A DNA stretch of 64,000 bases from Candidatus Bathyarchaeota archaeon (GCA_963767735.1 CAVYES010000008.1:1-64000), one strand, 5' to 3'. Shown: positions 45,359-64,000, counted from the first letter of the stretch. Translations and numbers: made by a program. The notes: generated by a model from the sequence alone, not told the origin.

Positions 45359-48300
45359 TTATGGAGTTGGAGTTGGAGAAGTCCTGCTGGCTGGACCGTA
45401 GGTGGCGACAAGGGCTGCGTTGTAGTCCTGTAGGAATAGCACTATATCTTGATAGTCCATTGTCCCACTATGGTCTAGTGCACATGCTGAATTAAGGGCG
45501 CCTGTTTGATAGTACCCGATGTAGCCATCAAGGAAGTATATTTCGTCGCTAAAGCCAACTGTGCCAGTATGGTAGAAATCAACTGGTGAAAACTGTTGTG
45601 CACTGTTAACGGTTAATTGAGTAGTTCCTGAAATGCCGGTGCTGCTGGCTGTGACAGTCCAACTGCCTGTGTTTAACGAAGTATATACGTTTCCAGTCCA
45701 GGAGCCGCCAGCGCCAGCACTCGTGAGCCAACTAACAGAGTTTGTTACATCCCACGAGTTACCCTCAGAATCATATGCCGTTGCAGTGCAAGATTGACTG
45801 GAACCAGAATTGATTGAAGCTGAGGCTGGACTTACAACAATACTTGAGACTACACCGTGGTTAATAGTCAAGGATGCTCTGACGAGTATGCCGTCAAGTA
45901 CACCTGTAACAATCCAGTTTCCTGAGTTAGCGGAAGTAAAAACGTTGGCACTCCATGAACCGCCAGCGCCTGAATCAATAATCCAAACTGTTGAACTTGA
46001 AACATCCCATAAATTACCGTACGCATCAGATGCCGTTGCTGTAAATGTTTGAGTGGATCCTGCGACGATTGTTTGTGTCTCTGGCGATATTACGAGGCTT
46101 GTTGGGGAGCCATGAATAACTGTGACGGGAGCTGTTGCAGAAAAGCCGCTCCATGTGGCGGTGATGGTCCATGTGCCTGCGTCGGCTGGAGTGTAGATGT
46201 TGGCTGACCATGAGCCGCCGGCACCCGAGGTTATGCTATAACTGGCCAAACCGGTAACGTCCCAGGTATTACCAAAAGTGTCAACTGCGATGGTACTGAA
46301 GGCTTCATTTGAGCCAGCTGCAATGGTCGCACTGTAGGGAGTAACCTGTATGCCTAATGCAGAAGCATGGGTTACCGTTAAAAAGACTGACTTACTCAAG
46401 CTGCCAAATGTGCCTGTAACGCTCCAGACACCAGCGAGTTGAGATGTGTAGACATTGCCTGAAAATGAGCCGCCAGCGCCCGCGTCAATAGTCCAAACTG
46501 TTGAAGGTGTAACGTCCCATGTGTTTCCGTAAACGTCAGCAGCGGTTGCTATGAAAGTTTCTGTTGAGCCAGCTATGATAGAGCCTGAGGTTGGTCCTAC
46601 CGTAATACTGGCAGCTGGCGCGTGATTTACCGTTACGGAAGCTGTGCTTGATAGACCTGAGTAAATGCCCATAACAGTCCAGCTTCCGGCATTGTTAGAG
46701 GTGTAAGTATTGCCAACCCAGGAGCCGCCAGCACCGACATCAATACTCCAACTTGTGGAGCTGGTTTCGTCCCAGCTGTTGCCGTTAGAGTCTGTCGCCG
46801 TTGCGGTAAAAGTCTGAGGTGAGCCAGCTGTAAGTGCAGCTGATGATGGACTTACTGTAATGCTAAGAGCTGCACCATGGTTAACTGTTAAAGAGGCTGT
46901 ATCGGATAATCCTGAGTAAATGCCGGTTACCTGCCAAGTGCCAGCCGTAATAGAACTATAAACGTTGCCGCTCCATGAACCGCCAGCGCCTGAATCAATA
47001 ATCCAATTTGTTGAAGGGGTAGCATCCCAAACATTATTGTAGTCATCGGTTGCTGTAGCTGTGAAGGCTTCGTTTGAACCTGTTGTGATAGTGGCAGTGC
47101 TAGGGGAGATGATGAGGGTAACGGCTGAGGCGTGATTTACGGTTAAGTAAGCATAGTTCGATAGCCTTGTGTATGTACCGGTGACAATCCAGTTTCCTGC
47201 AATAGCGGAGGTATACTGATTGTTAGCCCAAGAACCTCCAGCGCCGGAACTGACACTCCATTCTGTTAAGGCGGTAACATCCCATACGTTACCGTAGCTA
47301 TCGGATGCTGTAGCGGTGAAAGCTTGGCTGGAACCAGCAGTAATTGAAGCGGAATTTGGATCCACAGTAATGCTGACAGGTGAAGCATGAGTGACAATCA
47401 AAGTAGCTGTACCAGACAAACCTAAGCCCATGACAGTCACCGTCCATGTTCCTGCATTAGCAGAAGTATAAACATTATCAGATAAAGAACCGCCGGCATT
47501 TACGTCAACACTGAAACTGGTCGAACTAGTGATATCCCAACTGTTACCAAAGTAGTCGAATGCGGTTGCCGTGAAAGTTTGTGTTGAACCAGCCACTATA
47601 GTCGAGGTGCTGGGATTTACTTCAATTTTAACTGGATATCCGGGATTAACGGTTAAAGAAGCTATATTGGATAATCCTCCATAAGCACCAGTTATTGTCC
47701 ATGTGCCTGCTATAGCAGAAGTGTAAACACCTCTTGACCAAGAGCCGCCAGCGCCAGTGCTTGTACTCCAAGTTGCCGAATCAGTGACGCCCCAACTGTT
47801 ACCATAAACATCAGAGGCTACTGCCGAGTAAGACTGACTGAAACCAGCAGCCAAACTTGATGTTTGAGGAGATACTGTTAGGCTGATAGGTACGGCAGGG
47901 GTAACGGTGAGAGAAGCTTTATCAGATAATTCCCCATAAACGCCGGTTATTGTCCAAGTGCCAGCTTTGTCAGAAGTATAAACGTTACCGCTCCAAGAAC
48001 CTCCAGCGCCAGAATCAATAATCCAAACCGTTGAACCAGTGGCATCCCACGTATTGCCAAAACTGTCTATAGCTGTGGTCGTGTAAACTACAATTGTTCC
48101 AGCTGTGACTGAAGTTAAAGTCGAGCCCACCGCTATGTTAACAGCCGTACCATGATTAACAGTCAAAGAAGCAGTATCAGATACACCTGAATATGAACCT
48201 GTGACAATCCACTGGCCAGAAACTGCAGAAGTATACGTATTGCCTGACCAAGAGCCGCCGGCACCCGAGCTTATACTCCAATCAACTGAACTGGTAATAC

Positions 48301-49635
48301 TCCATGTGTTACCAAAGACGTCGGTAGCAGTGGCTGTAAAGGTTTGTGAAGAACCAGCCGACAAAGTTGCTGTTGCTGGAGAAATCACGATGCTAGAAAC
48401 AGGACCGTCGTCAACGGTTAAGGAAGCTGTACCTAATAATCCGTCATAAACACCGTAAACAGTCCATGTGCCAGCTTTGTCAGAAGTATAAACGTTACCG
48501 CTCCAAGATCCCCCTGCACCAGAATCAATAATCCAAACCGTTGAACTGCTAACGTCCCATGTGTTGCCATCGCTGTCACTGGCAGTAGCCGTAAAGGTTT
48601 GGCTGTGGCCTGCAACAACTGCTGGGTTTTGGGGAGATATGGTTATGCTAACGGCTGGACCATCTTCTTCAGTCAACATGGCTGTGGATGATAGGCTTCC
48701 CATTTTAGCCGTGACGACCACGGTGCCAGCTTTATTGGAAGTGTAAACATTGTTTGACCAAGAGCCGCAGGCGCCAGAGCTGGCACTCCAAGTTGCCAAA
48801 TTAGTAACATCCCAACTGTTACCGTAAACATCAGAAGCTAAAGCCGTGTAAGTCTCATGAGAACCAGTTTTGACAGAGGCTGAATTGGGGTTTATAGTAA
48901 TACTGGTGGCTGTTGCATGATTTACGGTCAGAGAGGCTGTGTCGTATAGACCTAAATAGCCGCCAGTTATGGTCCAGGTTCCGGTTGTTGCGGAAGTGTA
49001 GACGTTGCCCGACCAAGAACCGCCTGCGCCTGCAGTTATGCTCCAACTTGTTAGTGCTGTCACGCTCCACGAGTTGCCATAAAAGTCTGTTGCAGTAGCT
49101 GTATACGCTTGGTTAGAACCCGCGGTAACTGTCGCTGTTGTAGGAGAGATTTGAATACTGATCGGGGTTGCAGGATTTACCGTTATCACACTAGTTGCTG
49201 CCGAGATTGACCCGCTGGTTACTGTTATAGTTTGAGAGCCAGCGGTTGCAAGAATGAAACCTGAAAAGGTATGGACGCCCTTATCGCCCTTGCTACCTGT
49301 TGTAAAGGTGTACTCGCTCTGAGAAGTATAAGGCAAAGTAGCCTTGGGATCGGTTGAAGTGAAATAGATTGTACCCTTAAAGCTAGTTGCCACTTTGCCA
49401 TTAAATTATAAACAGTAACTGTTAAGCCGCTAAAACTTTGCCCTGCAGTGGTCGAAGATGGATAGCCGGTTATGGTGAAATATTGGGTAGGTGAACCATT
49501 AACAAAGAGAGTTTGAGAGGTTGATATTGTATACAATTCGGCAGCACCTAGCGTTGAAATCAGCATTATGATTATCAATAGCAAAGCTGGTATGGCATTA
49601 CCTCTAACTAGCCTTCTCATGTTTAACTTCTCCAA
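45359..49635 (-). CDS. Large secreted protein: 14 tandem ~85-aa Ig-like (Big_2-like) repeats + C-terminal dockerin-like domain; frameshift near 49400
   Basis: 14 copies of (F/Y)TATA.D.YGN.WDVT...W....GAGGSW.GN.YTS..AG.W; signal peptide in ORF 49225..49635; C-terminal DFYHTGTVGFSD / ALDHSGTMDYQD pair. Confidence 0.88.
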
Positions 49636-49771
49636 CTATTTTTATGCGCCCTAAAAGTATTTACCGTTTGTCGTTATAGTTTCAATAGTTTTAATTGGGA
49701 CTAAGTATTAACTTGTTTAAGAAAGGAGTAGTCTAGAGTTTATTTAGAACCTATAGTTTTTTTGGTTTATT

Positions 49772-51112
49772 TTATGGTAAAATTTGGAAGTTAGCAGCTG
49801 TTTCCGGGGCTAATGCTGTGCCATTTGCTGTTAATAGGCACATGTATGCTGTGGCTTGGCCGGTGAATGCCCATTGGGGAATGGAAATTGTGAGGTCAAC
49901 GACTGTGAAGTTTTGCAGTTGCATGGTGTTTCTGTAGGTAAATGATCCTATTGGAACATTGGCGTGGTCAAATACTGTTATGTCCAATTCTGAAGATGGG
50001 GTTGAAAACAATCCGTTATCGATTGTCAGCTCAATTGGGAGAGTTTGCCCTAAATTAACGCTGGCAGGCATTTGTATGCTTTCTATGTTGCTTAAGTAGT
50101 TAAAAGTAAAGGATGTTGAGTTGGTCAGCGTAGACGAGGAAAGGTTTATCGAAGCGGTTATATTCCATATGCCAAAAACAATTTCGGTTGCATTCGGGTT
50201 TGGAGCAGGCAACCTGTATTGGACATTTGCAATTCCCGTTTGATTTGTTAATCCGTCACCAACGGCTATTACGGTTCCGTTGGGGTTTTGCAGTGAAAAT
50301 GATACAGTTTGGTCAGGAACTGAAACATTCTGGGAGGTTACTAATCCATAAATTTGCAACAGGTCTTGGGGCCCGTAGGTGCCGCCGTTGCTGGAGCCTC
50401 TGCTGCCTCTGCCTGTGAATACTTGAAGAGTTGCACTGGATAAATTACTGGTTGTGGTGTTTGAGACGGTGACAGTTGCGCTATCACAAGTAACATCGTT
50501 GTGAGGGGCGGTAATAACGCTTGTAGCTACCACATACCCACTGCTGATTGTTATTGGACTAACACCGTAGTTCGTTATGTTAAAAGTTAACGTTGCTAAC
50601 ACGCCAGAAGGTTCAGTTGATACATCCGCACCTTCAATTCCTCCAGCTAAACCGCCTAGGATCTGCCCATTTACATTGTCGAATAAGGAACTTTGGCTTC
50701 CAGTAAATTCGGGTGTGTCATCTCCGGGAGCGTTGTTTGCTAGGAATGGACCTCCCGTAGCTTTTATCAGCTGTAGCACTGTTGCATTCCAAGAAACCGT
50801 AGGCAAAAACCAACCCCAAATGCCAGGTGAATTATCAATTCTAATATCAATCATAACGGTCGTGTAAATAGGATTTGGTTTGGGACCCAACGTAATACTT
50901 GAAGTGCTCATGGTACCCGATTGTACGGCGCTAATAGTTGGAGCCGGAGTGCTAGCTATGCTTACATGCGAGATTGTAAGTGGTATTGCGATAAGTAAGA
51001 TAATTGCTAATGCCACGATTATCTGTTTTCTTGGTTTCAGCTTTTGTGCACCGTCCGATTTTATCGTATTGATGTTTTGGGTGATGGTATTTTGCGTTTT
51101 TGAGCGTTTCAA
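49772..51112 (-). CDS. Secreted cohesin-domain protein (1 cohesin + GPQ domain + IP.WA.G domain)
   Basis: IDIRI...WGW...W...LQL....GPFL...SGVLATLTF...G.SPI; YGPQDL; IPQWAFTGQA. Confidence 0.8.
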   Translation of the reverse strand: MKRSKTQNTITQNINTIKSDGAQKLKPRKQIIVALAIILLIAIPLTISHVSIASTPAPTISAVQSGTMSTSSITLGPKPNPIYTTVMIDIRIDNSPGIWGWFLPTVSWNATVLQLIKATGGPFLANNAPGDDTPEFTGSQSSLFDNVNGQILGGLAGGIEGADVSTEPSGVLATLTFNITNYGVSPITISSGYVVATSVITAPHNDVTCDSATVTVSNTTTSNLSSATLQVFTGRGSRGSSNGGTYGPQDLLQIYGLVTSQNVSVPDQTVSFSLQNPNGTVIAVGDGLTNQTGIANVQYRLPAPNPNATEIVFGIWNITASINLSSSTLTNSTSFTFNYLSNIESIQMPASVNLGQTLPIELTIDNGLFSTPSSELDITVFDHANVPIGSFTYRNTMQLQNFTVVDLTISIPQWAFTGQATAYMCLLTANGTALAPETAANFQILP

Positions 51113-51114
51113 AT

Positions 51115-53286
51115 TTAAGACAGGATTTGGAAGGTACCAGTTTCTTGAGGACAGAGTGGGATTCCGCCGGCTGTGGGAAGACCAGTCATGACGTCAACGT
51201 AAACGGTTGCTGTTCCTACATAAGCCCATGAAGGAATTGTGATGCTTACTGGAACAGTGGCGGCACCTCCTCCTGATGCGGGGGAAATGTTAACTGTGTA
51301 ACAGTCTATTGGGACGTCTTGTGAGTCACAAACCGTAACTGCTAGCAATGAAGTTGATTTTAAGTTTTCCACAATCACATCAAAGCTCAAAGTGCCGGAC
51401 CTGTCCACGCTTGTGGGCAGTTGGATTCCTGTGATAGTGACAAGGTTGCTAACGCAGGTGAAGTTACATGTATCAGTTATGACAACAGATCCAACCTCAG
51501 TTAAGCCAACTATGGACCACATCCCTAATACTGAGTTAGGGTTGGGGCTGGGTAAAGGTATCCTAAATTCGAAGTAGGCATAGCCAGTTGTGTTTGTCGG
51601 GTCTACATTAAGAGCGGCAACTGTTCCATTTGGATAAGAAATCTCGAAGCCTACTAGATTGTCGGCTAAAGGCGCGTCCTTATAATCTACCAGTGCGTAC
51701 ACTTGAACTAGATCTTGCGGATTGTAGGTGCCGCCGTTAACATCATGGCCTATGCCGCCTTTATTAGTGAAAACGTCGATACTGGCAAGTTGCTGAGCAG
51801 TTTCAATTTGTATCCAAGCAACTTTTGTTGCCGTATCTATGTAACTTGAAGAGGGAGACGGATTCGTATCGGGCGCAGTCACGATTAGAGTTATTTTAAG
51901 ATAACCGACACTTGTAGCCTCAAAAGAAATTATTTGTCCATTAAAGGATCCAAAGATTGTAGAATTCTCAAATTCCACTAACCAAACATAGCTGGTTATG
52001 GGGCAAGTTTGCTTATCGTAGCCAGGCGTTGAAGCGCTTGCATCCATCAAAACTGTATCTCCTACCACATATATCGTTCCGTTGGGAGGAGTAAATTCTG
52101 CCACTGGACTATAGACGCTTGATGAACTGGGGGTAGGGGTGGGCGAGGGGGTAGGAGAAGATGAAGGGGTAGGAGTGGGACTGGTTGATGGAGTAGGAGT
52201 GGGACCGGTTGGTGATACAGCAGTAACAGTTGCACTATTACACGTAACAGTGGTTTCAGGGGCGCCTACGGTGCTGGTCGGTATCACGTATCCTCCGCTG
52301 ATCGTTACTGGACTGGTGCCGTAGCCGACCACTGTGAACGTCAAAGTAACAAGTACACCTGAAGGATCAGTTGATACATCCGCACCTTGAATAGCTTGAG
52401 CTAAACCACCGTCAATCTTTCCTGGATTGTCTGTGTTGTCAAATAAGCTGCTTGAGGTTCCAGTGGTTAATACTGCATCTCCTCCTGGTGTGTTATCTGA
52501 CAGGAATGGACCTGCCGCAACATGAGTCAGTTGTAGCACTGTAGAGTCCCATGTCACGGTGGGTATAGCCCAGCCCCAAAAGCCAACAGTGACATCGTCG
52601 ACTCTGATATCGATTTTGAACGTTGTACCCATTGGATCAGGACTGGGACCCAAAGTAATACTGGAGGTGGTTGTGGTTCCAGACGAAACCGCACTAAAAT
52701 AAGCGGTTGAAAGACTGCTAGCTGCGTCTGCTGCTGCTAATTCCGTCGGCTGATTATAGGTAAAAACTGCGTTTGTTTGTGTTGAAGATATTTGGGGATT
52801 TAAACTGGCAGAGCTTGTTGCGGGTCCGAGCAGTTCAATGTTGGTAAATTCTATCGGGCTTGATCCGTAACCGACGATTTGGAACGTGAACGAGACCAAG
52901 TTTCCTGAACCTGAAACGCCATTTTGCAAGATTAAAACATCATTTATGTTTGAAATTACTCCATCAGTATTGTCTATTGGCGAAGCTGTGAGCGATGTTT
53001 GTCCTGCAGAGTCAAGGAAGGATCCTTCGCTGAAACGCGTCATTTGCAGGATTGAAGGATTCCATGATAAGCCTAAACTCCAACCCCACAGATTAGTAAC
53101 ATCAGAAATATTGGCTGTGACTATGAAGGTTCCGCCAATCCCCAATGATTGACCGGAGATCGACGGCGGGTTTAGGCTGACACCCGCAGTTACATTAGCG
53201 TAGGTATTTCTTGAAATTAAAATCGCAGAAAAAATAATGCTTAAAATTATCACTACGCAAAGTATAGCTTTGATTTTTGTATTCAT
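51115..53286 (-). CDS. Secreted scaffoldin-like protein (2 cohesins + PT linker + PKD-like + GPQ + IP.WA.G domains)
   Basis: Two LWGW/FWGW...EGSFL/GPFL...SG.L.TF modules; PTPTP linker; DASAS.PG. Confidence 0.82.
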   Translation of the reverse strand: MNTKIKAILCVVIILSIIFSAILISRNTYANVTAGVSLNPPSISGQSLGIGGTFIVTANISDVTNLWGWSLGLSWNPSILQMTRFSEGSFLDSAGQTSLTASPIDNTDGVISNINDVLILQNGVSGSGNLVSFTFQIVGYGSSPIEFTNIELLGPATSSASLNPQISSTQTNAVFTYNQPTELAAADAASSLSTAYFSAVSSGTTTTSSITLGPSPDPMGTTFKIDIRVDDVTVGFWGWAIPTVTWDSTVLQLTHVAAGPFLSDNTPGGDAVLTTGTSSSLFDNTDNPGKIDGGLAQAIQGADVSTDPSGVLVTLTFTVVGYGTSPVTISGGYVIPTSTVGAPETTVTCNSATVTAVSPTGPTPTPSTSPTPTPSSSPTPSPTPTPSSSSVYSPVAEFTPPNGTIYVVGDTVLMDASASTPGYDKQTCPITSYVWLVEFENSTIFGSFNGQIISFEATSVGYLKITLIVTAPDTNPSPSSSYIDTATKVAWIQIETAQQLASIDVFTNKGGIGHDVNGGTYNPQDLVQVYALVDYKDAPLADNLVGFEISYPNGTVAALNVDPTNTTGYAYFEFRIPLPSPNPNSVLGMWSIVGLTEVGSVVITDTCNFTCVSNLVTITGIQLPTSVDRSGTLSFDVIVENLKSTSLLAVTVCDSQDVPIDCYTVNISPASGGGAATVPVSITIPSWAYVGTATVYVDVMTGLPTAGGIPLCPQETGTFQILS

Positions 53287-53579: not shown

Positions 53580-54240
53580 TTAAGGTGTTATTGCACCTAT
53601 GTCTACATTGCCATTTACTATCGTGGTGCCAATTGCTTCATGAAGTCCTTCTTCTAACATAGTCTCGTTTAGTACATATTGGTTGTATAAGTCTGCGCTT
53701 GATATATTGATTGGCGATGTCCCAGCGGCAACCACTCTAAACGTTAGGGTTGCAAGAGTTCCGCTGCCGCTTACAGTGATATTTTCATTAAATGCGTCAT
53801 CTACGCTTGGAAGGACACCTTGCTGGACCATAGGCACGCTGGCTGTGGATATAAAGAAAGTCGGTCCAGCAGATTTTAAGAAGGGACCTTCCGTAACATG
53901 TGTGAGGTTTAGAACAGCAGAGTTGAACGTTAGGTCAGCAATATCCCAACCCCAAAGGTCATGGACGCCACTCACGGTGACGTTTATTTCTATTGTTTGT
54001 CCGATATTTGCCGTCTGCAACTGTAAATTGGTTGGCTCTATGGCTAAGAGTTGCGTTAGGATATATTACAGGAAGGGGTGTCGCTGAAGGTGTCGGCGAG
54101 GGTGTTGAAGATGGCGATGCGGTTGTTGATGATGAAAAATGCACATAGGCAAATATGGCAACAGTTAAGATGATAATTGCGACTAAACCAACGATGATCT
54201 TGCTCTTCATTCCCTTTTTTCCTATTCTCTTTTTCTTCAT
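53580..54240 (-). CDS. N-terminally anchored single-cohesin protein, frameshift near 54040
   Basis: TM + S/T/P linker in 53959..54240; cohesin LWGW...EGPFL...SGSGTLATLTF..GTSPI in 53580..54020. Confidence 0.8.
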
Positions 54241-54265
54241 ATGTTTCGACCTGTCATTTAGTTAT

Positions 54266-55117
54266 TCAAATTATGCCATATCGTTTAGAAAGAGCATTCA
54301 ACCGGTTGGAAGCCTCATTACGGTTTTTTTTACTCCAGATGATTGCAGGCACCGCAAAAATCGTAATTATGATTAGGATTATTGGCACGATTATCCCTAA
54401 GGGAAATTCTGGCGCTGAAGGATTAGTTGAATGTACTACGATTGTTGCATCATTGCATGTAACGTTGACGCTGGATGAATCACTGCTGTTTGGTATTAAG
54501 TTGCCCCCTACAATGTTTATAGTACTACTGCCTGAGCCTGTAACCAGAAAAGTTAAAGTTGCCAACACACCAGAAGCATCCGTCGACGTGTCCACTCCCA
54601 AAATGCCCTCCGCTAAACCGCCGCCAAGTGTACCCTTTGTGTTATCCCAAAGTTGGCTTGCGCTTCCAACAAAGTCCGTTGTATCTCCTCCGGTGTTAGC
54701 TGAGAGGAAGGGACCTTGTTGAACTTGGGTCAGGTTCATGACTTTATGATTCCAAGTTACCGTGGGTATCTCCCAGCCCCAAAAACCAACAGCAACATCA
54801 TCAATCCTAATATCTACGCTTACATTAGTACCAACAGGATTCGGACTTGGACCCAACGTAATAGTTGAAGTACTCGCAGTCCCAGATTGAACCGCACTAA
54901 TAACAGCAGTTGAAAGACTAGGGGTATTGCTCATAGGTTCCAACTGCAATACGTTAGCCGGGTTTACGAGCGGCTCTATTGATGGGACAGATGCCGAGGG
55001 CCCGTTTAAATTAGCGACGGTGCACTCGCCCCTACCGATTCCAGAAACACAGACTAAAGTCAATATGATAAGGGTGCTCAGAACAATTGAAGCGATCAGG
55101 TTTCTCTTTATTTTCAC
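54266..55117 (-). CDS. Cohesin protein with PEF-CTERM-like anchor (tandem paralog 2)
   Basis: Signal peptide, cohesin, APEFP + TM + KKNR. Confidence 0.85.
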   Translation of the reverse strand: MKIKRNLIASIVLSTLIILTLVCVSGIGRGECTVANLNGPSASVPSIEPLVNPANVLQLEPMSNTPSLSTAVISAVQSGTASTSTITLGPSPNPVGTNVSVDIRIDDVAVGFWGWEIPTVTWNHKVMNLTQVQQGPFLSANTGGDTTDFVGSASQLWDNTKGTLGGGLAEGILGVDTSTDASGVLATLTFLVTGSGSSTINIVGGNLIPNSSDSSSVNVTCNDATIVVHSTNPSAPEFPLGIIVPIILIIITIFAVPAIIWSKKNRNEASNRLNALSKRYGII

Positions 55118-55147
55118 TTTCTTGACCTCATTTAATTGATAGTTTAT

Positions 55148-56065
55148 TCAAATTATACTGTATAGTTTAAAGAGAGCATTCAACCGGTTGGAAGCCTCAT
55201 TACGGTTTTTTTTACTCCAGATGATTGCAGGCACCGCAAAAATCGTAATTATGATTAGGATTATTGGCACGATTATCCCTAAGGGAAATTCTGGCGCTGA
55301 AGGGAGCGGTGTGGGTGAAGGGGATTGCGTGGGAGCCGAGGTAGGTGTCGTTGTCGACTTTGGGGTTGGTGTAGGCGACGGGGATGAAGTTGGAGTAGGA
55401 GAGGGGCTTGTAGAGGAGGAGGGGGTAGGAGTGGGACTTGGAGAAGAGGTTGGTGTAGGTGAAGGATTATTTGCAAGTACTATAATTGTTGCATTGTTGC
55501 AGGTAACGGTGACGTTGGATGTTGGGTTACTAAAGTTCGGTATTAAGCATCCTCCTGCGATGTCTATCGTACTACTGCCTGTGTCTGTAATGAGAAAAGT
55601 TAAAGTTGCCAATACACCGGAAGTATCCGTCAACGTGTCGTCTCCATAAATGGCCTCCGATAAACCGCCGCGAAGTGTGCCACCTGTGTTATTCCAGAGT
55701 TGACTGGAGCCGCCAATAAAATCCGTTGTATCTCCTCCAGTGTTAGCTGAAAGGAAAGGACCTTGTTGAACCTGGGTTAGGTTCATAACTGCAGGATTCC
55801 AAGTTACCGTGGGTGTAGCCCAGCCCCAAAAACCAACAGCAACATCATCAATCCTAATATCTACGCTTACATTAGTACCAACAGGATTCGGACTTGGACC
55901 CAACGTAATAGTTGAAGTACTCGCAGTCCCAGATTGAACCGCACTAATAACAGCAGTTGAAAGACTAGCCGCATCGCCCCTACCGATTCCAGAAACACAG
56001 ACTAAAGTCAATATGATAAGGGTGCTCAGAACAATTGAAGCGATCAGGTTTCTCTTTATTTTCAC
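55148..56065 (-). CDS. Cohesin protein with P/T/S linker and PEF-CTERM-like anchor (tandem paralog 1)
   Basis: Signal peptide, cohesin, ~55-aa PTPS linker, APEFP + TM. Confidence 0.85.
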   Translation of the reverse strand: MKIKRNLIASIVLSTLIILTLVCVSGIGRGDAASLSTAVISAVQSGTASTSTITLGPSPNPVGTNVSVDIRIDDVAVGFWGWATPTVTWNPAVMNLTQVQQGPFLSANTGGDTTDFIGGSSQLWNNTGGTLRGGLSEAIYGDDTLTDTSGVLATLTFLITDTGSSTIDIAGGCLIPNFSNPTSNVTVTCNNATIIVLANNPSPTPTSSPSPTPTPSSSTSPSPTPTSSPSPTPTPKSTTTPTSAPTQSPSPTPLPSAPEFPLGIIVPIILIIITIFAVPAIIWSKKNRNEASNRLNALFKLYSII

Positions 56066-56491
56066 TTTCTTTAACCTCGTTTAATTAATGTTACACGGTA
56101 ATAGTCAAATTAGCTTAAGTGAGTGCAAGCATACACTTAGCATCATTTGGTAGAACATTGCATGAATGGTTATTCTATGTTGAGTAAGTAAATTATTTAG
56201 AAATCAATAGGTTTTGTCTAATCTATATATTTGGATTCTTAGCGTTTGAAATGGCTTCAAAAACTCATTGTTTTCTTAATAAAGTGATAAACTTAGTCTG
56301 GGAACTAAGAGAATAATTTATTGATGCGTTTATACTCGCAATTTTGTTTATCAAAACGCCTCTATATCTGGAGGTATTATTGAAAGAGGCTGATTTCCAT
56401 GTTATAAGGTTCGTTGTCGAGGCATCTGCGAGGAATAGAAGAGTACTTATAAACGGAAAAGAGCGGTTATGATTTTGTTTTCATTGCTGCA

Positions 56492-58739
56492 CTAACTGCC
56501 GTAGTAAATGTATAGCGGAGCTTGTTGTTGTGGAGAGAAAGCTATTCCGCTGTTTGCTGGGGTGCCGTTGAGGATGTCGACGTCAGACATATGCTGGACC
56601 TACGTATGCCCATGTTGGAATGGTTAGGCTTAAGGTGTATGTTTGTGTGTTGCTGCTTGTCGCAAGATTTCCTGTTGCTGCTGGTGCTGTTTCCGCAAGT
56701 ATTTGGAATGCAACAGGTACGGTGTTAGTGTCGAAAACTGTTGCCGTCAGATAGAATGGTGTTGGAGTCCAGTTTGTGCTGTTAACGGTTGCTGTAAGGG
56801 TTATAACGTTGAGTCCTGCATAGTTTGGAAAGAAGACTGGACCTACACCGTTGGTGTCGTAAACGCCGTTGTTTATTGTTACGCCTTGCAGGTTAAGTTG
56901 GTATCCGTAGTAGAATTGGCATGTATCGTTTAATGTAACTTGAGATAGGTCAACTGTTCCTTTCACGGTAACCACACCGAAATAATCTGTCGGATCGCTG
57001 CCTTGCCATGGGAATCTGTAGGAGGTGGTTGCGTATCCCGTCGAGTTGGTTGATGCTTCTGCGTAGTCGATGTATTGGCCGTTGTCGTAGATATCAAAGG
57101 TAACTTCTTTGCCGACGACTGGGGCATTGTTGAAAGTTACGTAGCCTATGAGGTTAACTAACTGTTGAGGTCCGAATGCAGATGCGTCAGCACCAGCTCC
57201 TTGACCTCCGTTTTGAGTCCATATGTCAAGGGCACTTTCCGATTGAAGAACCTGTATGGTTAATGTTGTTGTGCCAGTTTCGCTATATCCCGGTGCAGGA
57301 GTATTGGTTGGTGAGAGTGCCGTTACAGTTAAAGTTGCAACTATTGTGCCAGGTGCCGACCCGACTTGAGCTGCTGACAGACTTACTGCTGAAGCACTTG
57401 AGGTCAATACTGCCCCGTCCACGAGAGTAATGCTCCAGCTGTATTTAGTAATAGGGCAAATCTGGTACGGGGGCACCATGTTGATGCCAGGCATCGATTG
57501 TGAACCATTAAGGATTAAAGCGAAGTCTGTTAAAGTCTGGTCGCTGCCAGTACCGAATGGGCCGCCCGAAGCAATTATGACTGCTTGTGGACCGGTTGCT
57601 GGTGCGGGAGTCCAGCTGTATGCTGCATTGTTTAATTGGACTGGGGTTATCGCTTGGTGTGGGGAAGCGTCATTTTGCAGAGTTGGTGTTCCTGTTATTA
57701 GGCCGAGGGCAGAGTCACTGTAGGTAACAATTTGGAAAGTTAATGTTGTCAAAACACCTGATGAAGCACTCGCACTCATAGCAGAGGTGTACTCGTCACT
57801 GATTCCGTCATCCACTTTACCCAAATAATTATCTATGAATCCTGGTGAGAACGATGTTTTGCCGCTCTGACTAAGATATGGACCTTCAGTAACGCTGGTA
57901 CATTTAACCACGTTTGGATCCCATGTAACGTCAACGCTCCAGCCCCAAACACCAGCCGCGCCGGTGATGTACAGGTTAATACTAAAGGTTGCGCCGATTG
58001 GATCTTGTAGAGATGGAAATTGAATGTTTGCGTTTGTGGTTGACCCACTTTGGTATATGCTGATGGAGGTTACTGTTGACTGTACTGCAGCGACTGATGC
58101 GCTATTACATGGTGCACTGATTTTGGGGGTGCCCACGGCGGCTGACCCCAGCAGGTAACCTTGATTGATGGTTATTGGACTGCTGCCGTAGCCCACAATG
58201 GTGAATGTTAGAGTAGCAACTACACCTGATGGATCAGTTGATACATCTGCAGCTGTGATAGCTTGTGCTAAACCGCCTGAAATGCTTCCTGGATTGACAG
58301 TGTTGTCAAATAAGCTGCTTGAGGTTCCAGTGGTAGATACTGTATCGCCGCCAGTATTGTCTGCTAGGAATGGACCTGCTACAACTTTTGTCAAGTGGAC
58401 CACTGCAGTATTCCAAGTTACTGTGGGTACAGCCCAGCCCCAAATGTCTGCTGCGCCGCTGATGTAGATGTCGAACTTTACTGTCGTGCCGATTGGATTC
58501 GGACTTGAAGGCACACTAACGCTATTAATGTTAGTCGTGCCTCCAGTGCCTAATTCCACTGTACTAAAGGTGCCGCTGGTAGCGGGTTGTGCACCCACCA
58601 TATTTAATGCAAAGAACATGGACGCAGTCATGATAAAAACTAGCGCTAATGCGACGTAGGGTTTTTTGTTTTTTAGGTTTAAAGGCGAAAAGAGTTTGCT
58701 GATTACAGCTACTATATAAGGTATATTTCTCCTTTCCAT
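56492..58739 (-). CDS. Secreted scaffoldin-like protein (2 cohesins + PKD-like + GPQ + IP.WA.G domains), frameshift near 56585
   Basis: Collinear with 61132..63357; alternate frame gives DVDILNGTPANSGIAFSPQQQAPLYIYYGS* ending at 56492. Confidence 0.85.
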
Positions 58740-59055
58740 TCCTCTCCTACACCGTCCTCTGTCTAGTATAGTGTATGAAGGGTCAATGCCCGAGTGAACT
58801 TCGGTGAGCGCCTTGGATACACTTCACTTTTCGCGCTTTAATAGAATCTATGTGAGGAGGATTATTCTGTCTTCAGTAAGTAAAATATGTAGAACCAAAT
58901 AGATTCCGTTTTGACATCATACTTGTCAATGTACTATGGAGCTTAACAAGCAATCAAGCCACCTCGTTGTTGGCATTTTTAGTTTTGGGAAGATGAAGAG
59001 TGAAGAGTTTGATTTAGGTGGAAAAAGAAAAGCGGTGGATTGCGTGGTTTTTTGT

Positions 59056-60120
59056 TTATGTTCGTTTTCTGAGCCAGATAAATGATCCGGCGAGAACGAA
59101 TACTGTTAGGATAACGAGGATTCCTGTTATTGTTGGGGGCACGTTGAATGATCCTGTGTTTGCTGTTGCCGCGGAGGTAGAATCTGGAGTGGTAGTTGTT
59201 GTTGGGGTTGAGGTTGAGTCGGTGTTAGGCGTCGCGGTAGCGGTTGGGGTGGGTGTTGCTGGTTTGCCTGTGACGCTTATTATTACTGTGCTGTTGTCGG
59301 TTCCAAGTGAATCTGTCACCGTTAACGTTACGGTGTAATTTCCTGGATTATTGAAAGTGTATGTTGCTGTCTTGCCTGTGAGGGTTTGTGGTGTGACATC
59401 GGTGAAAGTCCAAGTGTAGTTTGTGTTGGTTCCAGTTGAAACGGATTGTGATGCATTAAAGACTACCGGTGTACCTACGGGCACAGTTTGGTCTTCGCCT
59501 GCATTAGCGGTTGGAGCCCCAGCAATTTCAAGGGAAACTATGCTTGTTGAAAAGTAAGAGGCCGGAACTATTTGAGGGTGAGCTGTACCGGTTGTATCAA
59601 TCGATGGGTTAGGTCCTTCAAGAAGTACGACGCCGAGAGCTATTGGAGTTGATCCAGTTTGCCTCATTATTTGGAAGGTCATGCTTGCAAGAACGCCGCT
59701 TCCGCTTACAGAGTTGTCTTCCCCATTTGAAAATGTGTCAATAGCGCAACTTAAATACGCTTCCTTATAAGTATCCGTAGCAATTGCACCTGCAACATCA
59801 ACGATTGGGGAAGGCGTAAAAAGTGTTTGGTATTGGCTGTTCAGGAAACTTCCTTCTTGTTTGCTTATTAAGGTTAGGTAATTGGTGTCCCATGTAACGT
59901 TAAGCGCCCATCCCCAGAGGTTTTGAACATTTGAAATGTCGATGTTAATGGTGAATTGTTCGTTAAGTGTGGTCGCGTTGTATGTCGCAGGATCTAAAAA
60001 AACGGAGGGGGATTGTGAAGCCTGTGCGTTTACTGTGCGTGCATATGGAATTGCCGGAATTGCTGGGATTATCATGGCTGCAATCAGTATTAGGAGTAGA
60101 TAACCGATTGTTTTTTTCAA
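59056..60120 (-). CDS. Cohesin + PKD domain protein with C-terminal TM anchor
   Basis: LWGW.L.V.WD..EGSFL...SGSGVLA.MTF; PTANAGEDQ..FNASQS...YTWTF...YTF..PGNYTVTLTVTD; TM + RKR; probable TTG start at 60120. Confidence 0.88.
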   Translation of the reverse strand: MKKTIGYLLLILIAAMIIPAIPAIPYARTVNAQASQSPSVFLDPATYNATTLNEQFTINIDISNVQNLWGWALNVTWDTNYLTLISKQEGSFLNSQYQTLFTPSPIVDVAGAIATDTYKEAYLSCAIDTFSNGEDNSVSGSGVLASMTFQIMRQTGSTPIALGVVLLEGPNPSIDTTGTAHPQIVPASYFSTSIVSLEIAGAPTANAGEDQTVPVGTPVVFNASQSVSTGTNTNYTWTFTDVTPQTLTGKTATYTFNNPGNYTVTLTVTDSLGTDNSTVIISVTGKPATPTPTATATPNTDSTSTPTTTTTPDSTSAATANTGSFNVPPTITGILVILTVFVLAGSFIWLRKRT

Positions 60121-60127
60121 GGTGCTT

Positions 60128-61126
60128 TTAGCTGCTCCAGTACAGTATGTAGTAAGATAGGAAGAGGAAGAAGTCGGCTGCATTTATTTTACCATAACCA
60201 CCGAGGTCACATGCAGTATTATAAGATTGTCTCAGGTTGGATGAGATGTATGCGCTCAGGAAAATGAAGAAGTCCGTGGAGGTTACTGAGCCGGCTCCGG
60301 TAAAGTCGTCTAGTAACTGGACGTTGAACGACGTGGTGGCTGTGCCAAAATAGCCTGACCAGGTTCCGGAAGCATATACTTGGTAGGTGCCACTTGGGGC
60401 ATTGTCTTGTATTTGTGGGAGTGTGAATGTCATGCTGTAAACTCCTGCGCTGCCGCTGTTGCTTGGTGCTGAACCTGCAGCGGGGTTGCTTCCTACGATT
60501 GTGAATGTGAAGGGATATTCTTGGGCGAGCGGATATCCGCCGTTCTGTGGGAAATCGGTGTACACATCTGCGTAACCATACGCTGTTCCTGAGTGTGCAG
60601 TGGTTGGTATCGGAATGCTTCCTGTTTCTGTCTGAGATGCGTCCGCCCCGACTGAAACTTGTGCAGTATATACTCCAAGCGGAACCCCGTTGCCATCGTA
60701 AATGCTGATTGCAATTAAGGTCGTCCACAATTGGTCGTCTTGGTTCGCGACTACCATAGAGAAGTCGCCATCCGTGCCGCTATAGAAAGAGGGCGGTACA
60801 GGATTTCCGTCTGCGTCAGAAGTGTAAGCCGAAGTGATTTTTTCTGGCTCACTAAATTCTGTTGCCGTACCTGTTTGGATCGTTCTTAAAACTATGGGAA
60901 CCCCTCCACTTGGAAATTGTACTTGTATTCCGACCAGACCGTCGCTCGGATTCTCTCCGTTATACGAAAGCGCTCCATTGAGAGTGATGGGAGAATAGAA
61001 ATCGTATGTTGTTGTCTGGTTTGTTGTTACTGTAAGATTTACTGTTGGTGATTGAGCATGTACTAATGCGAAACTTGATATAATTAATATAAAAAGAAAA
61101 GAAAGGGAGATGATTTTTGTTTTCAT
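60128..61126 (-). CDS. Secreted protein with IP..A..G domain and C-terminal dockerin-like domain
   Basis: Start MKTKIISL at 61126; DFTGAGSVTSTDFFIF...YNTACDLGGYGKINAADFFLF. Confidence 0.82.
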   Translation of the reverse strand: MKTKIISLSFLFILIISSFALVHAQSPTVNLTVTTNQTTTYDFYSPITLNGALSYNGENPSDGLVGIQVQFPSGGVPIVLRTIQTGTATEFSEPEKITSAYTSDADGNPVPPSFYSGTDGDFSMVVANQDDQLWTTLIAISIYDGNGVPLGVYTAQVSVGADASQTETGSIPIPTTAHSGTAYGYADVYTDFPQNGGYPLAQEYPFTFTIVGSNPAAGSAPSNSGSAGVYSMTFTLPQIQDNAPSGTYQVYASGTWSGYFGTATTSFNVQLLDDFTGAGSVTSTDFFIFLSAYISSNLRQSYNTACDLGGYGKINAADFFLFLSYYILYWSS

Positions 61127-61131
61127 GGCTA

Positions 61132-63357
61132 TCACAAACTTGTGTTGTATATGTATAGCGAAGCTTGTTGCTGTGGACTGAATGCTAGTCCGTTGTTTGC
61201 TGGTGTGTTGTTGAGTATGTTGACATCGACATATGCTGGTCCTGCGAATGCCCATGTTGGAATAGTCAAGCTTATGGTGTACGTCTGTCCGATATTGCCG
61301 CCTGCAACGTTTGGTGCTGCTGGTGCAGTTTCCATAGTTACTGTGCATGCGACTGGTACGGTATTAGCGTCGAAGACTGTTGCTGTCAGGTAGAATGTTG
61401 TTGGGGTCCAGTTGAAGCTGTAGACTGGTACTGTAAGGGTTACAACGTTTTGTCCTGGATAGTTTCTGAAGAAGACTGGTCCTACGCCAGCGCTGTAAAC
61501 GCCGTTGGTGATTGTTATGGGCTGTAGGCTAAGTTGGTATCCGTAGTAGAATTGGCATGTGTCAGTTAATGTTACTTGAGATACGTCTACTGATCCTGTC
61601 ACTGTGACTGTGCCGAAGTAACTTGTTGGGTTGGTGTCTTGCCAAGGTAGTCTGTATGAGGCGTATGCATATCCGGTAGAGTCTGTTGATGCGGTGACTA
61701 CGTCAATGTAGACGCCGTTTAGGTATATGTCGAAGGTAACTGTCTTGTCTACTACTGGGGCGCCGTTGAATGTTACGTATGCCGTGAGGTCAACTAACTG
61801 TTGGGGACCGAATGCTGATGCGGGTGCGTTTAATCCTTGTCCGCCGTTTTGTGTCCAGATGTCTAGAACGCCGTTTGACCAGTTATTCCAGCCTGCTGGG
61901 AGTGGTAGAATAACTTGAACGCTCTGGGTTGTGGTGCTAGTTTCAGTGTATGTTGGTGCTGGGGTGTCGGTTGGTGAGGGTGCTGTAACGGTTAAGATTG
62001 CAGTTATTGTTCCAGGGGTCAAGCCTACTTGAGCTGCTGATAGGGCAACTGTTTCGGTATTAGCTGTCACTATTGTGCCGCCAACTAGAGTTATGCTCCA
62101 GCTGTATGTTGTGATTGGGCAGTTTTGCATTGGTGGGATCGTGTTTGTGCCTGCTTGTGAGGGCGTACCGTCAAAGGTTAAAGCGTAACCTGTTACAGTC
62201 TGGGAGTTGTCTGTGCCGAATGGGCTGCCTTCGTTGGTTATGATTGCTACTGGTCCTGTTGCGGTTGCTGGGGTCCATGAGTATGTTGCTCCGGTTAGGA
62301 TTGGTGCTGGTGTTATTACTTGAGCTGGGAGATTGTCGTTTACTAGAGTTCCTGGGGTTCCTGCTGTTAGACCGATGTTAGAGTCGCCGTAGCTGAGGAT
62401 TTGGAACGTTAATGTGCATAATACGCCTGATGTGGCACTGTCGCTTATTTGAGAGCTGTATGCGTCGCTGATTCCTGCGTCAACTTGTCCTAGATAGTTG
62501 TCTATGAATCCTGGTGCGAACAATGTTGCCCCGCCTGAACTTAGGTATGAGCCTTCGGTGACACCTGTGCATTCGAGTACGCTTGGATTCCATGTAACGC
62601 CTATGCTCCATCCCCAAACATTGGCAGGAGCGTTGCTGATGTATGCATCAACGCTGAATGTTGCGCCGATTGGGTCGCTTGCAGATGGCCAGGTAATGGC
62701 TGCATTTGTGGTTGATCCGTGTTGATACAAGCTGATGGAATTTGGTTTTTGAACTAAGAGTGATCCGCTGTTGGCTGATGTTGGGAGATGTGGAGAGCCT
62801 ACTGTGCTGGTTGCGATCAAGTATGCGCCGCTGATGGTTATTGCACTGCTGCCGTAGCCAACTATAGTGAAAGTCATAGTAATGACTACGCCTGCTGCGT
62901 CAGTTGATTGATCTGCAGCTGTGATAGCTTGTGCTAAACCGCCTGAAATGGTTCCTGGATTGTCTGTGTTGTCAAATAAGCTGCTTGAGGTTCCGGTGGT
63001 AGATACTGAATCTCCGCCAGGCGCATTGTCTGATAGGAATGGACCTGCTACAACTTTTGTCAATTGTATCACATTGGTATTCCAATTAACGGTGGGTATT
63101 GCCCAGCCCCAAATGTCTGATGCGCCGCTGATGTAGATGTCGTACTTTACCGTAGTGCCTATTGGACTAGGGCTTGAAGGCACTGTAATACTGCTGGTTT
63201 GACCAGCTGTGCCTCCAGTGCCTGATGCCACTACGCTAAAGGTGCCAGTGGTTGCTTGCGCGTGCACTACACCCATTGCAAAGAACATTGACGCTAACAT
63301 GAAAAAAACTAGCGCAAATGCTCCAATGCTCTTCTTGTTTTTAAAGTTTAAGTTCAT
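61132..63357 (-). CDS. Secreted scaffoldin-like protein (2 cohesins + PKD-like + GPQ + IP.WA.G domains)
   Basis: IWGW..GPFL and VWGW..EGSYL modules; DIWTQNGGQG..FGPQQLV; IPTWAFAGPA. Confidence 0.85.
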   Translation of the reverse strand: MNLNFKNKKSIGAFALVFFMLASMFFAMGVVHAQATTGTFSVVASGTGGTAGQTSSITVPSSPSPIGTTVKYDIYISGASDIWGWAIPTVNWNTNVIQLTKVVAGPFLSDNAPGGDSVSTTGTSSSLFDNTDNPGTISGGLAQAITAADQSTDAAGVVITMTFTIVGYGSSAITISGAYLIATSTVGSPHLPTSANSGSLLVQKPNSISLYQHGSTTNAAITWPSASDPIGATFSVDAYISNAPANVWGWSIGVTWNPSVLECTGVTEGSYLSSGGATLFAPGFIDNYLGQVDAGISDAYSSQISDSATSGVLCTLTFQILSYGDSNIGLTAGTPGTLVNDNLPAQVITPAPILTGATYSWTPATATGPVAIITNEGSPFGTDNSQTVTGYALTFDGTPSQAGTNTIPPMQNCPITTYSWSITLVGGTIVTANTETVALSAAQVGLTPGTITAILTVTAPSPTDTPAPTYTETSTTTQSVQVILPLPAGWNNWSNGVLDIWTQNGGQGLNAPASAFGPQQLVDLTAYVTFNGAPVVDKTVTFDIYLNGVYIDVVTASTDSTGYAYASYRLPWQDTNPTSYFGTVTVTGSVDVSQVTLTDTCQFYYGYQLSLQPITITNGVYSAGVGPVFFRNYPGQNVVTLTVPVYSFNWTPTTFYLTATVFDANTVPVACTVTMETAPAAPNVAGGNIGQTYTISLTIPTWAFAGPAYVDVNILNNTPANNGLAFSPQQQASLYIYNTSL

Positions 63358-63415
63358 TGTTTTTTTTCTCCTTTCTGATTTTTTTTTATCATAAAAAAAA
63401 TATAGGGCCCACTGT

Positions 63416-64000
63416 TTAGTGGGTTGGAGCGTAGACTGTGTAGTAATAGACGTATTCGCTTAGGAATGCTAAGAAGCTGCCGCCGTTGATTGTGCCTTGG
63501 GCTGTAATGTCTGCGTATGGGTTGTAAATGTGGTTCGCGTAGTATGCGATGTATGCATCAGTGAAGTAGAAGAAGTCGTTTGCATCAACAACCAATCTTG
63601 GGACAGTCTGAGTCTGGCCTGCGAGTGGTGTATAGCCTCCAAGAGCTGAGTTTAGAACTGGTCCGCCTGCCATTGCTGCGCGTGGCATAACCATGTAGTT
63701 GTTGTCTGAGACGAAGTTAGGATTCGGTGAACCAGTGCTGTACGGTGCCGTGGTAATTATGCCTGCATCGAGTTTCATGTATGCGATCCATACTCCTTCT
63801 GCCAGGTTCGGGCCTGTAGTTGGAATAGTATTTGGTGTTACTTCCCAGAGCCATCTGAATGGTGTGTATGTGCCTGCGATAACGTTAGCTTGTGATGGTG
63901 CAAAGTAGCCTGCTACTGCTGGTGATGGAGGACTTGCATTGTATATGCTTAGTGGGATCATGACTGCCTCGTTAGATATGTAGTAGCCTAGTGAAATGAA
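63416..64000 (-). CDS. 3' end of a larger protein (frame open to the window edge) with a C-terminal dockerin-like domain
   Basis: No stop between 63961 and 64000; VDANDFFYF..AY...YNPYADITAQGTINGGSFLAF. Confidence 0.75.
   Translation of the reverse strand, partial: FISLGYYISNEAVMIPLSIYNASPPSPAVAGYFAPSQANVIAGTYTPFRWLWEVTPNTIPTTGPNLAEGVWIAYMKLDAGIITTAPYSTGSPNPNFVSDNNYMVMPRAAMAGGPVLNSALGGYTPLAGQTQTVPRLVVDANDFFYFTDAYIAYYANHIYNPYADITAQGTINGGSFLAFLSEYVYYYTVYAPTH

Follow-up and report, generated by a model that had tools for sequence, protein, structure and literature searches.

A cohesin–dockerin gene cluster embedded in a phosphate-transporter locus of a Bathyarchaeota archaeon

Introduction

The cohesin and dockerin folds of bacterial cellulosomes, such as those of Clostridium thermocellum, Acetivibrio cellulolyticus and Ruminococcus flavefaciens, also occur in archaea, where the purpose of these modules has been an open question since their discovery in Archaeoglobus fulgidus (Bayer et al., 1999; Haimovitz et al., 2008; both as cited in Chadwick et al., 2022). 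The non-cellulosomal modules of A. fulgidus are encoded by a few isolated genes and their cargo is unclear. Here we describe a cohesin–dockerin gene cluster from a soil archaeon, Candidatus Bathyarchaeota archaeon (GCA_963767735.1), in which cargo, anchors and a transporter are encoded side by side. The stretch analysed, hereafter the window, comprises 64,000 nucleotides (CAVYES010000008.1:1-64000), i.e. the first 64 kb of a 267.6-kb contig (C8) in a genome of 3.04 Mb and 10 contigs that carries an archaeal small-subunit rRNA.

The closest described systems are those of anaerobic methanotrophic (ANME) archaea. The main text of Chadwick et al. (2022; PMC9012536) names ABC-transporter binding proteins of the NikA/OppA and TroA types as common ANME dockerin proteins and reports proteins with up to five cohesins, the pairings being untested there; adhesion was proposed for ANME cohesin–dockerin proteins in a passage of Timmers et al. 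(2017; PMC5244752). What these systems share with the locus described here, on the genomic observations given in PMC9012536, is an archaeal and non-cellulolytic setting, dockerins on binding proteins, scaffold-like proteins with several cohesins and a proposed role in surface attachment. They differ in cargo and host, NikA/OppA and TroA types in Halobacteriota as against PstS in Bathyarchaeia, and an operon-like unit of pstS-dockerin with permease and cohesin genes, conserved here, is not described for ANME in the dockerin passages of PMC9012536. Dockerin-tagged binding proteins are already known from ANME; the PstS cargo and the pst-linked locus are what differs, rather than a new category. 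The literature that we searched as full text, which took in few subscription journals and no supplements, gave no account of a PstS-dockerin protein or of a cohesin–dockerin system in Bathyarchaeia.

Two further comparisons concern the modules themselves. The A. fulgidus system resembles the present one in its cohesin fold and in the lack of cellulose degradation, but has neither a transporter link nor a division of labour between anchored and unanchored proteins. Cellulosomes share both folds with this locus and likewise have anchored single-cohesin proteins (by SLH or sortase there, by a transmembrane helix or PEF tail here) and adaptors that combine a cohesin with a dockerin (here a PQQ protein and, in a related locus, a protein of 239 amino acids (aa)). 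In contrast, the present system has no enzymes, no carbohydrate-binding module (CBM) and at most two cohesins per protein; its cargo consists of transport-binding and immunoglobulin-like (Ig) or propeller proteins, and its dockerins are rich in aromatic residues. A third comparison is with the membrane-tethered binding proteins of archaea and Gram-positive bacteria, held by a lipid or transmembrane anchor and a linker. These perform the same task, and the genome itself encodes one; the tether proposed here would, unlike theirs, be non-covalent, modular and encoded by separate genes.

We find the cohesin and dockerin genes embedded in a phosphate-transporter (Pst) locus, with dockerins on two proteins predicted to be of the PstS type. 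The reading that we favour, and consider probable though well short of assured, is a non-cellulosomal cohesin–dockerin surface-display system whose conserved cargo is PstS, with a dockerin in place of the membrane tether.

Results

The cohesin–dockerin cluster lies between pst genes

The listing of open reading frames (ORFs) gave 11 consecutive minus-strand genes, G1 to G11, from position 45359 to the end of the window. With the neighbouring genes on the pstB side they are as follows (module positions in brackets).

42612..43511, minus strand: pstB, ATP-binding subunit of a phosphate ABC transporter (TIGR00972, 383 bits; cut-off 343.2)
43612..44652, plus strand: PhoU-domain regulator with an N-terminal AbrB/MazE-type DNA-binding domain (PhoU, 8e-22; MazE_antitoxin, 2e-9; TIGR02135, 77.9 bits, below its cut-off)
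44649..45224, plus strand: 191-aa membrane protein of no known family, with a homologue beside pstB in a compact related locus (L015)
45359..49635, minus strand: G1, signal peptide, 14 Big_2-like Ig repeats (45599-49168), C-terminal dockerin (45404-45631); frame break near 49403
49772..51112, minus strand: G2, N-terminal hydrophobic segment, one class-A cohesin (50462-50911), MG2-like Ig domains
51115..53286, minus strand: G3, signal peptide, two cohesins (52759-53184 and 52216-52674), Pro/Thr/Ser linker, C-terminal Ig/MG-like domains
53580..54240, minus strand: G4, N-terminal hydrophobic anchor, Pro/Thr linker, class-C cohesin (53616-54020; Pfam Cohesin 26.6 bits); frame break near 54046
54266..55117, minus strand: G5, signal peptide, class-A cohesin (54431-54877), PEF motif, transmembrane segment and basic sorting-type tail
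55148..56065, minus strand: G6, tandem paralogue of G5, cohesin (55475-55924; Pfam Cohesin 26.4 bits), Pro/Thr/Ser linker of about 60 aa, PEF and transmembrane tail like that of G5
56492..58739, minus strand: G7, paralogue of G10, two cohesins (58083-58538 and 57615-58040), MG-like C-terminal domains; stop at 56583-56585
59056..60183, minus strand: G8, signal peptide, class-C cohesin (59569-59991), PKD domain (2.5e-19), Ser/Thr linker, C-terminal transmembrane anchor
60128..61126, minus strand: G9, signal peptide, some 250 aa of beta-rich domains without a family assignment, C-terminal dockerin (60131-60343)
61132..63357, minus strand: G10, signal peptide, cohesin dyad (62749-63204 and 62311-62712), Ig-like middle, MG-like C-terminal domains
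63416..64807, minus strand: G11, signal peptide, predicted PstS-type phosphate-binding protein, C-terminal dockerin (63419-63658); complete at 463 aa, the window showing it up to 64000

Divergent from G11, and only 180 bp away, are pstC and pstA (PstA scores 201 bits, above its cut-off; PstC 178 bits, cut-off 196). The pstB gene, with the PhoU-like gene beside it, is found about 20 kb from G11 on the far side of the cohesin cluster, so that the cohesin and dockerin genes are embedded in the phosphate-transporter locus. Outside the window, the next genes of the locus encode an MG2-domain membrane protein, a PQQ beta-propeller membrane protein and a PIG-V-like glycosyltransferase and, further on, a second PstS-dockerin protein (PstS2), a CARDB-dockerin-BsuPI protein and a protein that combines a PQQ propeller, Ig domains, a cohesin and a dockerin (C8:76305-78521). 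The MG2 protein (C8:67553-69145, plus strand; L001:7553-9145) directly follows pstA, in the usual place of pstB, and consists of two MG2-like ectodomains, which resemble the C-terminal domains of G2, G3, G7 and G10, one helix and a long cytoplasmic tail of coiled-coil or low-complexity character.

An earlier note on this DNA, made from the sequence alone, had described much of this layout. Its 11 consecutive minus-strand genes agree with the ORF listing, and its count of 11 cohesins in eight genes with that obtained by our own cohesin model (see below). The three proteins that it saw ending in paired dockerin segments are G1, G9 and G11. Four single-cohesin proteins, which it took to be membrane-anchored, are G5 and G6 (PEF motif and C-terminal helix), G8 (C-terminal helix) and G4 (N-terminal helix); G2, G3, G7 and G10 are the four cohesin proteins to which it assigned no C-terminal anchor, the last three with two cohesins each. 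G1 is its protein of 14 Ig-like repeats, with a period of 85 aa, and its statement that the cluster has no recognisable catalytic domain held for the 10 complete window proteins in Pfam and NCBIfam. Among the checks that it proposed, a search for all dockerin proteins of the genome returned six, all within C8:45-78.5 kb, and Cohesin scored above the Pfam cut-off in five window proteins, with the G10 model adopting a cohesin fold. Three points go beyond that note, namely the PstS-type nature predicted for G11, the position of the cluster inside the Pst locus, and its extent. The cluster reaches past both of the limits given there, and runs to about 78.5 kb with three further dockerin proteins beyond the window.

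The cohesin modules

Pfam Cohesin (PF00963; curated cut-off 24.1 bits) scored above its cut-off for the second modules of G3 (29.4 bits), G7 (27.2) and G10 (29.5-32.1), for G4 (26.6-27.0) and G6 (26.4-28.3), and for a protein on contig C1 (33.5-36.1), and slightly below it for G5 (20.6-22.3), G8 (22.0) and the first module of G10 (18.5). We built a hidden Markov model (HMM) of our own from eight Pfam-detected modules and ran it on the whole genome. It found 13 modules in 10 proteins, with the next-best ORF at E 0.3; five modules that had not been among the seeds were recovered at E 7e-21 to 4e-50. Within the window it gave one module each in G2, G4, G5, G6 and G8 and two each in G3, G7 and G10; the two modules outside are those of the C8:76305-78521 protein and of the small PEF-tailed protein on C1. 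Thus, 12 of the 13 cohesins of the genome are located in C8:45-78.5 kb. The modules of G2 and the PQQ protein, and the first modules of G3 and G7, were linked through this HMM alone (E 2e-22 to 5e-50). The G8 module was aligned with those of 13 orthologues, all 14 of which match Pfam Cohesin at E ≤ 0.01, and the G8-family profile matches type II cohesins in the PDB (5e-12).

G10, the one cohesin protein that was modelled, gave an AlphaFold model with a mean pLDDT of 82.3 from an alignment of 17 rows. Residues 203-364 superimpose on solved cohesins with Z 15.8 and a root mean square deviation of 2.2 A over 137 of 143 residues (4uyq_A); the first 42 rows for this segment are all cohesins, including that of A. 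fulgidus (2xdh, Z 14.4), and the type II cohesin dyad 3l8q_A covers residues 38-362. Residues 365-736 resemble the MG domains of complement C3 (Z ∼12), and the model consists of beta-sandwich domains throughout. Foldseek, run with the whole 741-aa model, returned mainly strings of Ig/MG domains (complement C3/C5, alpha-2-macroglobulin, an archaeal S-layer protein), with cohesins from rank 23; this was resolved by the VIA search, which is independent of Foldseek. The archaeal modules are genuine cohesins. In a tree they fell into class A (G5, G6, G2, the second module of G3 and the first modules of G7 and G10), class B (the second modules of G7 and G10) and a looser class C (G8, G4, the first module of G3 and the C1 protein).

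The dockerin modules and their carriers

The C-terminal ends of G1, G9 and G11 each consist of two tandem dockerin-type segments. An HMM of this tail found six members in the genome, G1, G9, G11, PstS2, the CARDB/BsuPI protein and the cohesin-bearing PQQ beta-propeller protein, all of them within 45-78.5 kb of C8 (next ORF at E 0.37). A genome scan with Pfam Dockerin_1 (PF00404; cut-off 22.9 bits) at E ≤ 1 yielded three proteins, all in this locus: the PQQ-cohesin-dockerin protein, which is above the cut-off (23.1-26.3 bits), G9 (18.5-22.2) and the CARDB protein (16.0). The G9 module also matches NCBIfam dockerin_GC (24.1 bits); G1, G11 and PstS2, searched as single sequences, gave no Dockerin_1 match. 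When the six dockerins were aligned with 34 from related loci, 32 of the 40 sequences matched Dockerin_1 at E ≤ 0.01 (best 2.7e-11), and the profile of the alignment matched cellulosomal dockerins in the PDB (6kg9, 2y3n, 1daq, 1ohz and others) as well as EF-hand proteins. The orthologues contain two canonical DxNxDGxIN..D calcium loops, and the unit of D.N.DG.I...D plus helix is duplicated in most members; the tail of the G11 model has a pair of helices, at residues 409-425 and 442-459. At family level these archaeal tails are genuine dockerins, unusually rich in aromatic residues (F/Y). A complex prediction for the G8 cohesin and the G11 dockerin (residues 392-463), run without controls, scored 0.02 against a mark of 0.32 and counts as evidence neither way.

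Other than the PstS-type proteins, the carriers include G1, the repeat profile of which matches the Ig-like (Big_2) domains of Leptospira LigA/LigB (E 2e-10); nine of its 14 repeats also match Invasin_D3 weakly. Neither a glycoside hydrolase nor a CBM nor any other catalytic family was detected by Pfam and NCBIfam in the 20 proteins scanned.

G11 is predicted to be a PstS-type binding protein

G11 itself has no Pfam match, PBP_like_2 included, and a PDB sequence search with G11 alone gave matches at chance level. The assignment of G11 to the PstS family of phosphate-binding proteins, with a C-terminal dockerin, comes from its homologues and its predicted structure. Of 96 homologues, 93 possess the dockerin tail; many of the 96 are annotated with PF12849 or as substrate-binding protein of an ABC-type phosphate transport system. 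The G11 model (pLDDT 90.4) retrieved phosphate-binding proteins at ranks 1-49 in Foldseek (best E 5.8e-16) and at ranks 1-13 in the wide VIA search, with Z from 24.1 (4jwo) to 17.5 and the next family at 14.3. These searches with the whole model tested the binding-protein body and barely covered the dockerin tail. Against the PstS model TIGR02136, G11 scored 61.2 bits (E 8.7e-17; cut-off 206.6). In the G11-family profile, the motifs GSS(T), GSG, D and R...SGT line up with those of PstS structures such as 1twy; by analogy with E. coli PstS, they may be the ligand contacts.

The signal peptide of G11 runs straight into the binding-protein fold. Together with PstS2, G11 gives the locus two PstS-dockerin paralogues. 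A second, conventional Pst system is encoded on contig C5 (C5:514199-520505), with phoU, pstB, pstA, pstC, pstS and a PhoU-like regulator. The PstS encoded there lacks a dockerin; it has a membrane helix at its N terminus and a Pro/Thr linker some 60 aa long. That one PstS of this organism is tethered by a helix, whereas G11 carries a dockerin instead, supports the dockerin as the tether of PstS. The C5 pstS gene is split into ORFs of 356 and 101 aa, which is probably another assembly indel.

Membrane anchors and sorting tails

Every protein of the cluster has an N-terminal signal or anchor segment and is taken to be exported. C-terminal hydrophobic helices are found in G5, G6 and G8, in G5 and G6 behind a PEF motif. 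The G8 orthologues conserve the C-terminal helix and a basic tail after it, ...WLRKRT in most, by which G8 is predicted to be a conserved membrane anchor. In G4, an N-terminal helix and Pro/Thr linker lie in a reading frame other than that of its cohesin.

The pattern ...PT(V/I)PEF, followed by a hydrophobic helix and a basic tail, is present in 39 ORFs of the genome, compared with 0-12 for ten control tripeptides. This set includes G5, G6 and the cohesin protein of contig C1; examples are window positions 4692-5855 (minus strand) and C1:26280-27014. The genome has one archaeosortase-family gene (C8:164544-165611; TIGR04178, 49.7 bits, cut-off 23), and its best specific model, thaumarchaeosortase, scores 76.9 bits and stays below the cut-off of 250. 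No curated PEF-CTERM model of NCBIfam matched G5 at E ≤ 1 or G6 at E ≤ 0.1, and the PEF tails run on for an unusually long 23 aa after the helix. By analogy with ArtA and PGF-CTERM, the PEF tails may lead to lipid anchoring.

The pst linkage is conserved in related loci

The PstS-dockerin alignment was scanned against one genome per prokaryotic species, which gave 19 loci on 17 contigs. Seventeen of the loci are labelled as metagenome-assembled genomes (MAGs) of Bathyarchaeota/Bathyarchaeia and two as bacterial MAGs. Divergent pstC/pstA genes lie within 1.5 kb of pstS-dockerin in 16 of the 19. Downstream of pstS-dockerin, cohesins are found in 17 loci, and a cohesin gene begins no more than 1.5 kb away in 16. 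A G9-like dockerin gene is present in 14 loci and the MG2 membrane protein beyond pstA in 15. Two of the loci that miss these features are second PstS paralogues on contigs already counted. A G10-type dyad gene directly follows pstS-dockerin in most relatives, the order also kept between G11 and G10, and the linkage to pstC/pstA and to pstB/phoU persists over PstS identities from 85% down to 29%. Collectively, the bracketing of the cluster by pst genes, the two PstS cargo proteins and the conserved linkage argue that the system is tied to phosphate uptake. The dockerin cargo of relatives further includes PQQ propellers, a NosD/beta-helix protein and MG2 proteins; there was no phosphatase among it.

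A compact order is that of L015, which reads phoU, pstA and pstC, then divergently pstS-dockerin, a 239-aa cohesin + dockerin adaptor, a G8-like cohesin-PKD-transmembrane anchor, the 191-aa protein and pstB, with both cohesin genes between pstS-dockerin and pstB. The adaptor (L015:11255-11974) combines one cohesin with a canonical, non-aromatic type I dockerin, which indicates that some relatives use two dockerin types in one locus; the canonical type was not found in the genome of the window. As a conjecture, the gene order of L015 and L008 hints that PstS-dockerin binds the cohesin of the adaptor and the adaptor in turn the G8-type anchor.

Two observations concern single relatives. In L018 a PstS-like body, a dockerin (residues 516-588) and then cohesin modules (with a Pfam Cohesin match at 634-756) share one ORF of 837 aa (L018:5744-8257). 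Either pstS-dockerin has naturally fused with the gene that follows it, or a stop codon was lost in that assembly. L014 and L015 come from the MAGs labelled bacterial (Limnocylindrales, Acidoferrum) and have the same archaeal-type gene order; either mis-binning of these contigs or transfer of the locus may account for this.

Pfam Cohesin was detected in 39 of 201 genomes sampled from the class. Both modules occurred in 14 genomes, only the dockerin in eight and only the cohesin in 25. Relatedness makes such genomes non-independent, and these counts carry no statistical claim.

Frame breaks and assembly

G1 and G4 contain frame breaks and G7 an early stop. Short-read contigs from four public soil-metagenome runs (two studies) were placed on 45300-64000 and showed only three indels over 18.7 kb, each of a single base: an insertion at 49403 (one run), a deletion at 54046 (two runs) and a deletion at 56585 (two runs). 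These are exactly the G1 break, the G4 break and the G7 stop, and after 56585 the other frame of G7 continues with a G10-like tail. Given this coincidence, the defects are most likely assembly errors and the three genes most likely intact, each indel being supported by one or two contigs at a depth below 5. We dropped the alternative that G1, G4 and G7 are pseudogenes, as independent contigs carry indels at exactly these positions. An error rate of about one indel per 6 kb is suggested for this region, so that other split ORFs of the genome may be artefacts as well.

G5 and G6 are a recent tandem duplication: their first 30 aa are identical and their C-terminal tails nearly so. In one short-read contig, 55973 is joined back to 55026 through 98 shared letters that belong to the duplicated G5/G6 sequence; in another, 56893 is joined to 61530 (G7 to G10) through exactly 31. 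Since 31 letters is the word length of the contig assembler, the G7–G10 joint is probably chimeric; both odd joints may be chimeric contigs rather than variants. Elsewhere in the window, 37093-38385 (minus strand) encodes, unusually for an archaeon, an S-adenosylmethionine synthetase of the bacterial/eukaryotic MetK type, with three Pfam S-AdoMet_synt domains.

Discussion

We propose the following arrangement for the products of the locus. One set of cohesins would be fixed to the membrane, by the C-terminal helix of G8, the archaeosortase-kind PEF tail of G5 and G6, and the N-terminal helix and linker of G4. A second set, G2, G3, G7 and G10, has no obvious anchor and would present one or two cohesins followed by MG/Ig-like domains. 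The six secreted dockerin proteins would be the cargo: their dockerins are predicted to plug into the cohesins and so hold the cargo at the cell surface. Where a cell lacks an outer membrane, a binding protein requires a lipid or transmembrane tether; in the case of PstS, the dockerin–cohesin bond would take the place of that tether and keep PstS near the PstC/PstA permease. The Ig-repeat and beta-propeller cargo may contribute adhesion as a further function, and the locus may be regulated by phosphate. More tentatively, and with considerable doubt, we suggest that cohesin–dockerin pairs serve a subset of Bathyarchaeia as a nutrient-uptake tether, with PstS seated in the anchored cohesins and possibly also arrayed on the secreted two-cohesin scaffolds as an antenna.

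Several observations weigh against PstS being displayed in this manner. The Asp/Asn ligands have gone from the first calcium loop of the G11 and PstS2 dockerins, the loops of which are degenerate; as neither protein alone matches Dockerin_1, these dockerins could be weakened or bind differently. The pairing of PstS dockerins with cohesins is a prediction. The scheme does not account for the place in the assembly of G2, G3, G7 and G10, which lack a recognisable anchor, and a binding protein carried by a distal scaffold would be unable to dock with the permease. With only 61 bits against a cut-off of 206.6 in the PstS model, G11 could have another oxyanion as its ligand. Finally, the dockerin family is patchy, being present in 22 of the 201 class genomes and in two of 11 other genomes of the genus, so that the system is not needed for Pst function in general.

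The earlier note had concluded that this is a modular structural or adhesive envelope system rather than a degradative cellulosome. The modular, non-degradative part of that conclusion stands, given the lack of glycoside hydrolases and CBMs, which argues that this is no degradative cellulosome. A cellulosome-like complex whose enzymes have diverged past recognition strikes us as highly improbable: G9 and the central parts of G3, G7 and G10 do contain domains without a family, and one relative has a weak polysaccharide-lyase-like match (3.8e-4, under the cut-off), but none of the 20 scanned proteins has a catalytic family, and the G10 model is built of beta-sandwich domains alone. The other part, a structural or adhesive role, is not borne out as the sole one in view of the PstS-type dockerin cargo and the pst linkage. 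In its strict form it would mean that Ig fibres and propellers are displayed so that the cell can attach to particles or to partner cells, that the system is functionally unconnected to transport, and that the PstS fusion and the neighbouring pst genes are incidental or secondary. Four of the six dockerin proteins are indeed non-transport proteins (the Big_2-like fibre G1, G9, the CARDB/BsuPI protein and the PQQ propeller), relatives add PQQ propellers, NosD/beta-helix and MG2 proteins and no phosphatase, and adhesion is what was proposed for ANME (Timmers et al., 2017; PMC5244752, in the passage referred to above). Set against this are the retention of pstC/pstA and pstB/phoU down to 29% PstS identity and the fact that PstS is the only cargo common to all related loci, which is so partly by design, the loci having been found with PstS as the query. 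On balance we regard this explanation as unlikely.

The conserved link to transport could also be read as a phosphate-starvation antenna, in which the unanchored cohesin proteins array many copies of PstS, together with other cargo, beyond the membrane so that more phosphate is captured, and the whole locus is Pho-regulated. The position of the locus between the PhoU-like regulator with pstB and the pstC/pstA pair would fit such a device, as would the two PstS-dockerin paralogues and the G10-type dyad gene that directly follows pstS-dockerin in most relatives. However, PstS must reach the permease to deliver its ligand, and no scaffold has more than two cohesins; we consider an antenna of this kind quite improbable. 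Display of PstS close to the membrane by a dockerin that substitutes for a tether is the reading that we retain.

The locus offers a defined set of parts, with 13 cohesins, six dockerins and one PstS/PstCAB system, on which the question of what archaeal cohesin–dockerin modules do is open to direct binding assays. The aromatic-rich dockerins may in addition serve as orthogonal parts for designer scaffolds. More broadly, the locus points to a general strategy by which transport binding proteins could be held on cells that lack an outer membrane. If PstS is indeed tethered or arrayed through its dockerin, this would be a modular and exchangeable means of keeping binding proteins at a cell that has no periplasm, and it would provide the first defined physiological role for an archaeal cohesin–dockerin system.

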